A stretch of 7,651 nucleotides of DNA. Source: a virus. How positions within the stretch are numbered: the stretch's first letter is position 1; each line of letters opens with the position of its first letter. Where the stretch lies: the UHGV virus genome UHGV-0363594, one strand, 5' to 3'. Of this stretch, positions 3,776-7,651 are shown piece after piece. The notes beneath the pieces are model-generated. The model did no database searches and was not told the origin of the DNA. It saw only the letters and a list, made by a program, of their open reading frames with translations. The position numbers were made by a program, and so were the translations under genes.

Positions 3776-4004
3776 CCTCCTCTACCTCTCTACCTAATCA
3801 TCTTTCATGTCAGTAATGGCGCGGCTTTCAGATGGGTAGAGGGCTTTCGTGGCCCTCTACCCATCCTCTACCCGCCCCTCACAAACGATCTTAATCATGG
3901 TAGAAGAGGTAGAGAGGTTTTATTAGCCTTCTACCTAGCCCTCTACCCACTTATCATGTTGAATAATATGCGTTTATTTCATTCAGGTAGATGGGGTAGA
4001 GGGC
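3776..4004. repeat. Iteron array, putative origin of replication: at least 10 copies of the core GGTAGAG / CTCTACC in both orientations, flanked by AT-rich stretches
   Basis: Copies at about 3779-3786, 3787-3794, 3834-3844, 3852-3862, 3864-3873, 3899-3909, 3908-3917, 3927-3936, 3938-3948, 3986-3994 and 3994-4004. Includes a perfect inverted pair GGGTAGAGGGC-tttcgtg-GCCCTCTACCC (3834-3862). AT-rich tracts at 3751-3765, 3955-3984 and 4005-4025. No plausible ORF. Lies directly 3' of the primase/helicase gene. Confidence 0.6.
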
Positions 4005-6992: not shown

Positions 6993-7199
6993 TCATCTGG
7001 AAACCAGCGAGCACAAAGGCTCCCCCGTTACGCCCCGCCATAATGCGGGTATGGGTAGGTTTACGGACACAAAAAACCGCTTATCGGATGTGGGCGGCTG
7101 TCCGCCAGATGTATTCAGGCTGTCAAACCCGGTCGCCATGTGGGCGACGGGGGAAGCATACAGCCCCGTGATAATTTTTTGCAAGCGGTTTTTACGCAT
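6993..7199 (-). CDS. Hypothetical protein (68 aa with the start chosen here; the ORF extends to 7241)
   Basis: The start at 7199 (MRKNRLQ...) has an AGGGG SD-like element and overlaps Icd-like B by 8 bp. It occupies the same relative position as 6522..6743 in the duplicated unit but shows no obvious protein similarity to it. Confidence 0.4.
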   Translation of the reverse strand: MRKNRLQKIITGLYASPVAHMATGFDSLNTSGGQPPTSDKRFFVSVNLPIPALWRGVTGEPLCSLVSR

Positions 7200-7389
7200 G
7201 ATGTGACCCCTGGCGAATACGGGCGGCGAATACAGCAACACAACCGGACGGGCAACGGCTACGCGCTTCGCGTTCCGTCCAGGCGGTTACGTGGATGATT
7301 TGAGATTCTCCGGCACTCAGTGCCAGAAAACGCCACACAAAGGCCGTTTGTGTGTGTACAAGGTGTGGTATATGATTTACGGCAACCAT
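7192..7389 (-). CDS. Small Icd-like protein, paralog B (65 aa); first gene of the leftward early operon
   Basis: SD GGAG 5 nt upstream of the ATG. Motifs AFVWRF...TEREARSR...VFAARIRQG are paralogous to 6733..6906. Confidence 0.6.
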   Translation of the reverse strand: MVAVNHIPHLVHTQTAFVWRFLALSAGESQIIHVTAWTEREARSRCPSGCVAVFAARIRQGSHHA

Positions 7390-7417
7390 AACGGCTCCTA
7401 GTTTACGTTGTTGGTTA

Positions 7418-7452
7418 GAAGCCCCGTTACTGCTCCAACAGTGCGGGGCTTC
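7418..7452 (-). other. GC-rich stem-loop in the predicted 5' leader of the Icd-like operon
   Basis: 9-bp perfect stem GAAGCCCCG (7418-7426) / CGGGGCTTC (7444-7452) with a 17-nt loop. It is not followed by a U-run on the minus-strand transcript, so it is probably not a terminator. Confidence 0.4.
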
Positions 7453-7490
7453 GTCGTTTCAATTGCTGAATTGCATGTATCAGCACTTGT

Positions 7491-7544
7491 GGTATTCACA
7501 TTACATTTATGTGAATACCATTTCAAGTCTTTTTTGGTATTCAC
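7491..7544. promoter_or_regulatory. Operator-like perfect inverted repeat plus an extra half-site in the divergent promoter region
   Basis: GGTATTCACAT-tacattt-ATGTGAATACC (7491-7519) with a third half-site GGTATTCAC at 7536-7544. A candidate minus-strand promoter overlaps it: -35 TTGAAA (plus 7521-7526) and -10 TGTAAT (plus 7500-7505), 15-nt spacer. Confidence 0.5.
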
Positions 7545-7587
7545 TTTTGTATTACACTGCATCCCGTTATTAATGGGAGGTGCAAAC

Positions 7588-7651
7588 ATGTCCAGGAGTT
7601 CTGTTAACAATAAGTCACAGCAACTGAATGCCAGATTTCCACATGAAGTAG
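7588..7651 (+). CDS. 5' end of a plus-strand gene (partial, runs off the window), divergent from the Icd-like operon; possible regulator
   Basis: ATG at 7588 is preceded by a strong SD GGGAGGTG with a 6-nt spacer. The open frame MSRSSVNNKSQQLNARFPHEV continues to the window end. Its function cannot be assigned from 21 residues. Confidence 0.5.
   Translation, partial: MSRSSVNNKSQQLNARFPHEV

Follow-up and report, generated by a model that had tools for sequence, protein, structure and literature searches.

Repeated operator-like sites, a predicted ribbon-helix-helix protein and a candidate antisense RNA in the divergent control region of an Escherichia coli phage satellite

The DNA considered in this study, UHGV virus genome UHGV-0363594, is a stretch of 7,651 nt (hereafter the window, whose coordinates are used throughout), and it raises the question of what acts on a set of repeated sequences near its right end. 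The repeats lie in an intergenic region of 198 bp, between a leftward operon that begins with an Icd-like gene and a rightward gene of the YlcI/YnfO family whose ATG is at 7588. To judge from its sequence, the window is a satellite of E. coli of the type known as the capsid-forming phage-inducible chromosomal island (cf-PICI; PICI for the larger class). The control region is of some relevance because no repressor is known for PICIs of Gram-negative bacteria, in which the sole demonstrated regulator is the activator AlpA (PMC6092414). The answer proposed here is that the rightward gene most likely encodes a cognate repressor and that the repeats are its operators, because the sequence of the sites tracks a strand of that protein, while AlpA and the product of a downstream open reading frame (ORF) remain nearly constant.

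The intergenic region contains a perfect 12-nt inverted repeat, TGGTATTCACAT at 7490-7501 and ATGTGAATACCA at 7509-7520, the arms separated by a 7-nt spacer. An additional exact copy of TGGTATTCAC is found at 7535-7544, 14 nt beyond the right arm, in the orientation of the left arm and 45 bp from it (start to start). An earlier reading, made from the sequence alone, had reported an 11-bp inverted repeat with the same N7 spacer and a third half-site; both are present, the former being in fact 12 nt long and perfect. None of 5000 dinucleotide-preserving shuffles of the 198-bp region produced an inverted repeat of 12 nt, and repeats of at least 10 nt appeared in 0.16% of them. The 10-mer, with up to one mismatch allowed, occurs 5 times in the window as against 0.35 expected, and 3 exact copies are packed inside 55 bp. 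The repeats, which occupy positions -98 to -44 relative to the ATG of the rightward gene, are real and non-random.

The region was compared with about 20 loci from at least 10 genera (E. coli, Citrobacter, Klebsiella, Enterobacter, Phytobacter, Yersinia, Serratia, Xenorhabdus, Photorhabdus, and others), all of which share one common scaffold of about 198 bp. Repeat units in 18 loci are located approximately at -99 (S1), -75 (S2), -54 (S3), and -30 (S4) from the ATG, with S1 and S3, and likewise S2 and S4, 45 bp apart; most of these 18 relatives have a unit at the S1 position. On the strength of the repeat search and the shuffles, S1 in the window is the left arm of an operator O1 (7490-7501, with the core TGGTATTCAC at 7490-7499), S2 is its right arm (7509-7520, with the core GTGAATACCA at 7511-7520), and S3 (7535-7544) is the left site of a second operator, O2. 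The partner of S3 is absent. The window, which has kept S1, S2, and S3, thus appears by comparison with its relatives to have lost S4, and the "extra half-site" would be what remains of the second operator. The palindrome plus half-site that the sequence-only reading took as the unit does not survive the comparison, since relatives have four autonomous sites and, in some cassettes, direct repeats. A further candidate for a fourth site, TGTGGTAT at 7364-7371, was rejected; the same sequence occurs in L011, a locus with a different operator type.

S1 and S2 are inverted with respect to each other in most cassettes and direct in two (L027 and L028), both of which encode short proteins (61-62 aa) and in which GGTGTGCTCCAC occurs twice and GTCAGCCAC three times. 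Because of these direct repeats, I take each unit to be an autonomous site and not the arm of a hairpin. Such sites are as expected for symmetric ribbon-helix-helix dimers, and the inverted layout in the window would then be one variant. The same two cassettes bear on a quite different idea, that the repeat works as a nucleic acid structure (a hairpin in a leader RNA or a cruciform in DNA) and that a nearby GC-rich stem-loop, considered below, acts in the leftward leader. The perfect 12-nt arms are certainly able to pair, but direct repeats at the same positions cannot, and the repeat can therefore be excluded as a functional hairpin or cruciform. Furthermore, given the conserved promoters, the repeat region lies mostly upstream of both transcript starts.

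Those promoters were assigned by positional conservation in place of a consensus scan, because the scan of 7150-7651 for promoters and terminators called no promoter at all (and only one terminator-like site, on the - strand at 7354-7334). A -35 element resembling TTGAC[AG] at position -62, followed after a 17-nt spacer by TAnnnT at -85, is present in 15 of 19 loci. The corresponding predicted leftward promoter of the window, PL, consists of TTGAAA (7526-7521, - strand, at -62) and TAATGT (7503-7498, - strand), the latter inside the spacer of O1, with a transcript start expected near 7490. The predicted rightward promoter, PR, has TACACT as its -10 in the window (7553-7558, + strand), with a start expected near 7565; the homologous position in relatives, -36 and between S3 and S4, is occupied by TATACT or TATAAT. 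Judged by position against the conserved hexamers, S2 abuts the -35 of PL, S1 lies over its -10 and +1, and S3 and S4 flank the -10 of PR. In the window, S1 covers the predicted start point of PL, S2 fills the PL spacer beside the -35, and S3 is upstream of the PR -10. The earlier suggestion that the repeats overlap a leftward promoter and precede the rightward gene is consistent with this placement, PL being positionally conserved in the relatives.

If the repeats are operators, then which protein recognizes them? Across genera, the sequence of the sites changes with residues 11-15 of the rightward protein, within a predicted N-terminal strand. Proteins with the strand QQ[LI]NARF (E. coli, Yersinia, Phytobacter) are found with [TG]ATTCAC cores, those with QLTTVRV (Xenorhabdus, Photorhabdus, E. 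coli, Citrobacter) with the arms GTGTGTTTC / GAAACACAC, those with KQISIRI with TGTGATTC, and those with QSLTARI with GTGTAAGAC; at least five such pairs of operator and strand are carried on the one scaffold. It was predicted beforehand that E. coli proteins with QLTTVRV would be accompanied by arms of the Xenorhabdus type. They are, and the same is true of Citrobacter koseri. By comparison, AlpA is 94-98% identical over three operator types, with at most four residue differences among L001, L003, L011, and L012, and the downstream ORF of 57 aa is 100% identical in L001 and L012 despite their differing operators. Pairwise identity profiles place the divergence between the GC hairpin and approximately codon 40 of the rightward gene, and the unit of exchange would appear to combine the operators with the DNA-binding domain, much as phage immunity regions do. 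The co-variation of the sites with the N-terminal domain of the rightward product fits the earlier proposal of a repressor that regulates both itself and the early operon.

The same comparisons address the possibility that the repeats are the sites of some other protein (AlpA, the 57-aa product, a host factor, or a protein of the helper phage) and that the YlcI/YnfO protein acts otherwise. AlpA is needed for induction and activates PICI transcription (PMC6092414; 10.1101/2022.09.08.507074), and DNA binding by the YlcI/YnfO protein is itself a prediction. Nevertheless, the nearly invariant AlpA would have to serve three unrelated operator sequences and the identical 57-aa product two different ones, while a host or helper factor fails to explain both why the site sequence should track the strand of the adjacent gene from genus to genus and why the swapped unit should consist of the operators and the first 40 or so codons. 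I consider it distinctly improbable that another protein is responsible.

The preferred candidate, the YlcI/YnfO protein, is represented in the window by the first 21 codons of its gene (7588-7651, + strand), preceded by the Shine-Dalgarno sequence GGGAGG at 7575-7580. The full-length product in relatives is 101 aa, and 57 E. coli genomes encode it in identical form (WP_001403025.1). Its N-terminal 42 residues (9-50) match NF041551 (YlcI_YnfO_N) with 60.8 bits, as compared to a cutoff of 30 (E 9.6e-17), and it is a member of phrog_6522 (full length) and phrog_949 (N-terminal portion), both listed as of unknown function. The family is small, a set of 1.8 billion proteins yielding 79 representatives at E <= 0.001. 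The sequence-only reading had predicted a helix-turn-helix (HTH) domain in this product. None was found: the 101-aa protein matched no HTH family in Pfam, NCBIfam, or PHROGs, and the sole HTH protein nearby is AlpA (PF05930). What the family member offers instead is an N-terminal pattern (K-S-x-x-h-x-x-R-h-P, a helix, a G-E-S/T turn, and a second helix with an E-I-x-R-R end) that weakly suggests a ribbon-helix-helix fold of the Arc type.

Profile comparisons point in the same direction. Sub-threshold matches are mainly to ribbon-helix-helix families, i.e., PSK_trans_fac (21 of 32 members; E 0.008), CB_ParB_C (E 2.7e-4), RHH_1 (E 0.0029), TacA1, NikA, and RHH_5. Direct alignment with hhalign sets the strand QLNARFP in register with QFNLRWP of Arc, at a level that is not significant (E 0.0034, probability 9.6%), and the result with Mnt is likewise in register and not significant. 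The positional equivalent in L003, a 59-aa protein from an alternative cassette, matches the PHROG annotated "Arc-like repressor" (E 2.5e-6) and aligns to the family profile across the whole strand-helix-helix with 72% probability (E 3.5e-5). The AlphaFold monomer has helices at residues 19-28 and 35-53, with the G-E-T/S turn. From these alignments, the N-terminal 50 residues or so are most likely an Arc-like ribbon-helix-helix DNA-binding domain.

The C-terminal half of the protein is highly conserved and helical, with a weak helix-hairpin-helix resemblance (to Hef 1x2i and Pol beta). Residues 60-90 (L001 9326-9418), LDALAQVEKIGIKAAEEI with an invariant I-G, stay about 95% conserved even where cassettes differ in their N-terminal domains. 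Sequence searches of the PDB with the protein and two profiles gave only matches at the level of chance or to this C-terminal feature (Pol beta, E ~0.3; Hef 1x2i, E 0.008; the ribbon-helix-helix-type chains 3no7 and 4me7, E 0.2-0.4). One metagenomic relative, P0168 (122 aa), has two tandem YlcI/YnfO N-terminal domains in one chain and may be a natural single-chain "dimer" useful for structural work; its AlphaFold model, with a predicted local distance difference test score (pLDDT) of 57, is too poor to show a ribbon.

At the other end of the intergenic region is the GC-rich hairpin (7418-7452), followed on the + strand by a U-rich stretch (7453-7465). The stem-loop of 9 bp noted earlier is present (GAAGCCCCG at 7418-7426 and CGGGGCTTC at 7444-7452), and it is longer by four pairs, which lie inside what had seemed a 17-nt loop. 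That apparent loop between perfect arms is also why the terminator scanner, limited to loops of 3-8 nt, missed the hairpin. Covariation was assessed from an alignment of 17 loci. Read on the + strand, 96.2% of the cells of the 14-pair stem are paired, as compared to 84.7% on the - strand, and double changes are found in 9 of the 14 pairs. Pairing as high was seen in none of 500 shuffles, and the value lies above all slid controls. Wobble cells number 27, every one of them G·U when read on the + strand and an A·C mismatch when read on the - strand; the converse does not occur. In each of the 17 loci, the whole 103-nt segment folds more stably as the + strand. A U-tract follows on the + strand, strong in L003, L005, L020, and L022 and modest in the window (GUCGUUUCAAUU), while on the - strand the hairpin is flanked by UAACCAACAACG, without a U-tract. 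Given the covariation and the restriction of G·U pairs to the + strand, the hairpin is read on that strand, and as such it would be the intrinsic terminator of a candidate antisense RNA.

The remainder of this RNA can be sketched from the sequence upstream. A second hairpin (7380-7413, + strand), more stable on the + strand in all 17 loci (summed energies of -142 versus -82 kcal/mol), presents the anti-Shine-Dalgarno sequence CTCCT (7395-7399) in its apical loop. A predicted -10 element, TATGAT (7371-7376, + strand), is accompanied by a weak -35, TTGTGT (7348-7353), that matches the consensus at 3 of 6 positions, and the start would be near 7383. The T, A, and final T of TATGAT are invariant in the 17 loci despite differences in the amino acids encoded opposite, and the second-position A pairs with the third base of a codon on the coding strand. 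The result would be a conserved candidate cis-antisense RNA of about 80 nt, extending from approximately 7383 to the hairpin at 7418-7452 and fully complementary to the PL leader, including the ribosome binding site and start codon of the Icd-like gene, which is its presumed target. No Rfam family was found for 7330-7600 at a permissive threshold, with matches to sar, RsaJ, and miRNA at noise level, and the candidate RNA thus appears to be conserved and absent from Rfam.

These results complete the case regarding the structural alternative raised above. The GC hairpin of the window does fold on the - strand nearly as well as on the + strand (-23.0 versus -24.3 kcal/mol), as would be required for a role in the leftward leader, but the strand-specific G·U pairs, the difference in pairing, the greater stability of the + strand in every locus, and the lack of a U-tract after the - strand hairpin all speak against it. 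That the repeat and the stem-loop act as structures of the leftward leader or of the DNA is scarcely credible. Of the post-transcriptional control that the sequence-only reading had attributed to the stem-loop, the control itself is still likely; its assignment to a leftward-leader structure is what fails.

Operators, protein, and RNA can be put together in a scheme that I regard as probable on the evidence of sequence, in which the YlcI/YnfO protein silences the leftward operon through S1 and S2 and regulates itself through S3, with the antisense RNA as a second lock. Dimers of the protein, made from PR, would bind the autonomous units of about 10 bp. Those on S1 (7490-7499) and S2 (7511-7520) would bracket the -10 and abut the -35, blocking PL and so keeping the operon of Icd-like, replication, and capsid genes silent, while a dimer on S3, just upstream of the PR -10, would limit synthesis of the protein. 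The antisense RNA, its anti-Shine-Dalgarno loop facing the ribosome binding site of the Icd-like gene, would stop whatever Icd-like translation leaks through. I infer from these arrangements repression rather than activation, the ends of the transcripts, and expression of the antisense RNA. How such a switch might open is a matter for speculation: perhaps through AlpA-driven leftward transcription converging on the repressor gene, perhaps through a phage protein that targets the conserved C-terminal domain.

It is conceivable that the YlcI/YnfO protein binds the repeats and yet is no silencer but rather an activator, a pure autoregulator, or something like an antitoxin for an Icd-like toxin, with PL mainly under the control of AlpA and the RNAs. 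Antitoxins are among the ribbon-helix-helix proteins, the weak matches include families of the VapB / TacA type, Icd-like proteins are annotated as division inhibitors, and a sister element, L025, does without the divergent gene at this position. Set against this are the geometry of PL, where a site in the spacer beside the -35 and another over the -10 and +1 (15 of 19 loci) would be expected to block RNA polymerase and not to recruit it, and the orientation of the YlcI/YnfO gene, which is divergent from the Icd-like gene, whereas antitoxins are normally co-transcribed with their toxins. I therefore judge a role other than silencing to be unlikely.

Repression by the YlcI/YnfO protein, with the RNA as second lock, remains the preferred account, and several observations weigh against it. 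The loci are related, and counts made over them are not independent. The promoter hexamers of the window are weak (8 of 12 positions for PL, 4 of 6 for PR), and the scanner called none. The match of strand to site is imperfect in some groups (L005, L018, L020). All direct matches to ribbon-helix-helix families fall below every curated threshold, the AlphaFold monomer (pLDDT 77) consists of helices with no strand, residues 8-16 being modelled as helix, and a Foldseek search of that monomer against the PDB gave no matches. Only 6 U are found within the 12 nt that follow the stem of the GC hairpin in the window. Induction of the prototype element needs AlpA (10.1101/2022.09.08.507074). Finally, L025 has no divergent YlcI/YnfO gene, its alpA, a 222-aa ORF, and its Icd-like gene being co-directional. 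Judged by this gene order, the repressor gene is therefore an optional, exchangeable module, and the switch would not be essential to satellites of this type.

The leftward operon has a further layer of control. Its first gene encodes the Icd-like protein (65 aa; 7192-7389, - strand; NF033153, E 5.8e-18), with the Shine-Dalgarno sequence AGGAG at 7399-7395. Downstream on the same strand are C4 RNA (RF01695; 6958-7045) with 72.6 bits against a threshold of 45, c4-a1b1 (RF03163; 7112-7161) with 46.8 bits against a threshold of 46.7, and, below threshold at 29.7 bits, an isrK-like element with a strong terminator (7070-7148). Together, lying between two Icd-like ORFs, they constitute an RNA immunity module of the P1 immI / P4 type. 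This module is a layer separate from the repeats, and it is part of the same operon, so control is layered. Apart from the window, the gathering score of C4 is reached by L003 and L013 alone among 14 related loci scanned.

Some smaller features of the operon may be noted here. The terminator-like site found by the scan, a hairpin at 7334-7354 on the - strand (CACACAAA / TTTGTGTG, then GCGTTTTCTG), falls within the first Icd-like ORF, about 35 nt past its start codon, and may be an early attenuation point. A 70-aa ORF on the - strand (7398-7610) was considered as coding and rejected, the region being a non-conserved, swappable cassette, and a long "Icd-like" coding sequence (CDS) placed by PGAP across the region in L001 was rejected on the same ground. 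In some genomes RefSeq lists a 162-aa "Icd-like" CDS (L001 8737-9222, - strand) that extends across the entire control region into the rightward gene. For L002 the annotation of this DNA is a 68-aa protein, and the longer CDS probably has an over-extended start.

The logic of the region, by analogy, would be closest to that of P22 immI, set before an icd-C4 module like that of P1 and P4 and in the role of Stl. The P22 immI region has the ribbon-helix-helix repressors Mnt and Arc, the divergent promoters Pant and Pmnt, and the antisense RNA sar. The likeness lies in a small, autoregulating repressor, of the ribbon-helix-helix type by prediction, that is divergent from the operon it would control, in operators inside and over the promoter, and in a short antisense RNA with an intrinsic terminator over the ribosome binding site of the downstream gene. 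As with Mnt, the YlcI/YnfO protein has a C-terminal helical extension past its DNA-binding domain, and as with Arc, its strand presents Q-x-N-x-R-x-P in register. The differences are equally plain. The window has no anti-repressor gene, and the operon controlled begins with the Icd-like gene and continues with replication and capsid genes; four sites with a period of 45 bp, the paired sites 21-24 bp apart, replace the compact operator of 17-21 bp in P22; sequence similarity of the YlcI/YnfO protein to Arc and Mnt is not significant; and the Rfam model of sar is unmatched (E ~1).

In the immI region of phage P1 and in the immunity of satellite P4, the C4 / CI antisense RNA lies upstream of icd. 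The window shares with them control at the level of RNA over an operon led by icd, with C4 and a1b1 in the same leftward operon. C4 is processed, acts in trans, and comes from the operon's own strand, in contrast to the RNA proposed here, which would come from the opposite strand and be antisense in cis to the leader. The proposed RNA is found in all 17 aligned loci, C4 in few of those scanned. P1 and P4 are not known to have a comparable protein operator at this promoter.

Omega of pSM19035 and the plasmid repressors of the CopG type are ribbon-helix-helix proteins that bind one dimer per short repeat. Here, too, units are direct or inverted, depending on the cassette, and stand in arrays over promoters, but they are about 10 bp long and widely spaced, unlike contiguous heptads, and the YlcI/YnfO protein has an extra conserved C-terminal domain. 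Stl and Rpr, of the SaPIs and Gram-positive PICIs, are regulators divergent from a replication and packaging operon and beside int (PMC6092414), and the YlcI/YnfO protein, similarly placed, plausibly keeps its island silent. Proteins of the Stl type have HTH domains, whereas the YlcI/YnfO protein has no HTH match.

A switch of this type is thus already known; it is the protein family that is uncharacterised. A search of the literature on YlcI/YnfO function, ribbon-helix-helix proteins in PICIs, repressors of cf-PICIs, and C4 or Icd in satellites turned up no work on this switch. The wider claim, that the YlcI/YnfO protein with its exchangeable operator cassette supplies the master repressor so far missing from many Gram-negative PICIs and cf-PICIs, including the O157:H7 element of the EcCIEDL933 type, I offer tentatively, as a possibility that may well prove wrong. 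Were it true, the conserved C-terminal domain would be a target for inactivation by helper phage or AlpA-driven convergent transcription, the RNA of about 80 nt would be a new family that keeps a toxic Icd-like gene untranslated, and the cassettes would define "immunity types" among satellites resident in the same cell. More immediately, the analysis provides a candidate silencer with defined sites in a tractable element, the protein being identical in the capsid-forming PICI of O157:H7. It would give the YlcI/YnfO family (phrog_6522 / phrog_949, now labelled "unknown function") a function, it supplies a series of operators and strands of use in studies of ribbon-helix-helix recognition and in the design of orthogonal switches, and it adds a candidate conserved antisense RNA outside Rfam.

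The surroundings of the control region accord with its assignment to a satellite. Related E. coli loci have the gene order int, alpA, and a rightward pair of small genes that includes the YlcI/YnfO gene, with the divergent leftward genes encoding Icd-like ORFs, DUF4222, a primase or helicase, SSB, PerC, and capsid proteins. The leftward Icd/primase operon described earlier is indeed found in the window, as two Icd-like ORFs, small ORFs, and a primase of 584 aa. The O157:H7 element, whose rightward protein is identical and whose control region is 99.5% identical, encodes an HK97-type capsid, protease, portal, connectors, HNH, TerS, and TerL, and its gene content is that published for the prototype EcCIEDL933 (10.1101/2022.09.08.507074). 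Satellites with parts of the window are present in 2317 of 5426 complete E. coli genomes and the exact cassette in 57. The exact mosaic of the window was found in none of these 5426 genomes, the best match ending at 7424. The sister element L025 (NZ_AP045179.1 1728900-1731800) is 97% identical to the window up to that same position.

Three other segments of the window deserve mention. Positions 1-129 match, at 98.5% identity, a region of Escherichia phages PhiR12_1 to PhiR12_5 annotated as encoding a hypothetical protein. Positions 472-556 resemble phage 21 and other lambdoid phages in their cos / terminase-proximal region (84-94% identity) and are probably the cos site of the satellite. PICI replication origins are usually located downstream of the primase gene, and in the gap immediately downstream of that gene in the window there is a perfect 10-nt inverted repeat, GATGGGTAGA-N15-TCTACCCATC, at 3831-3865.

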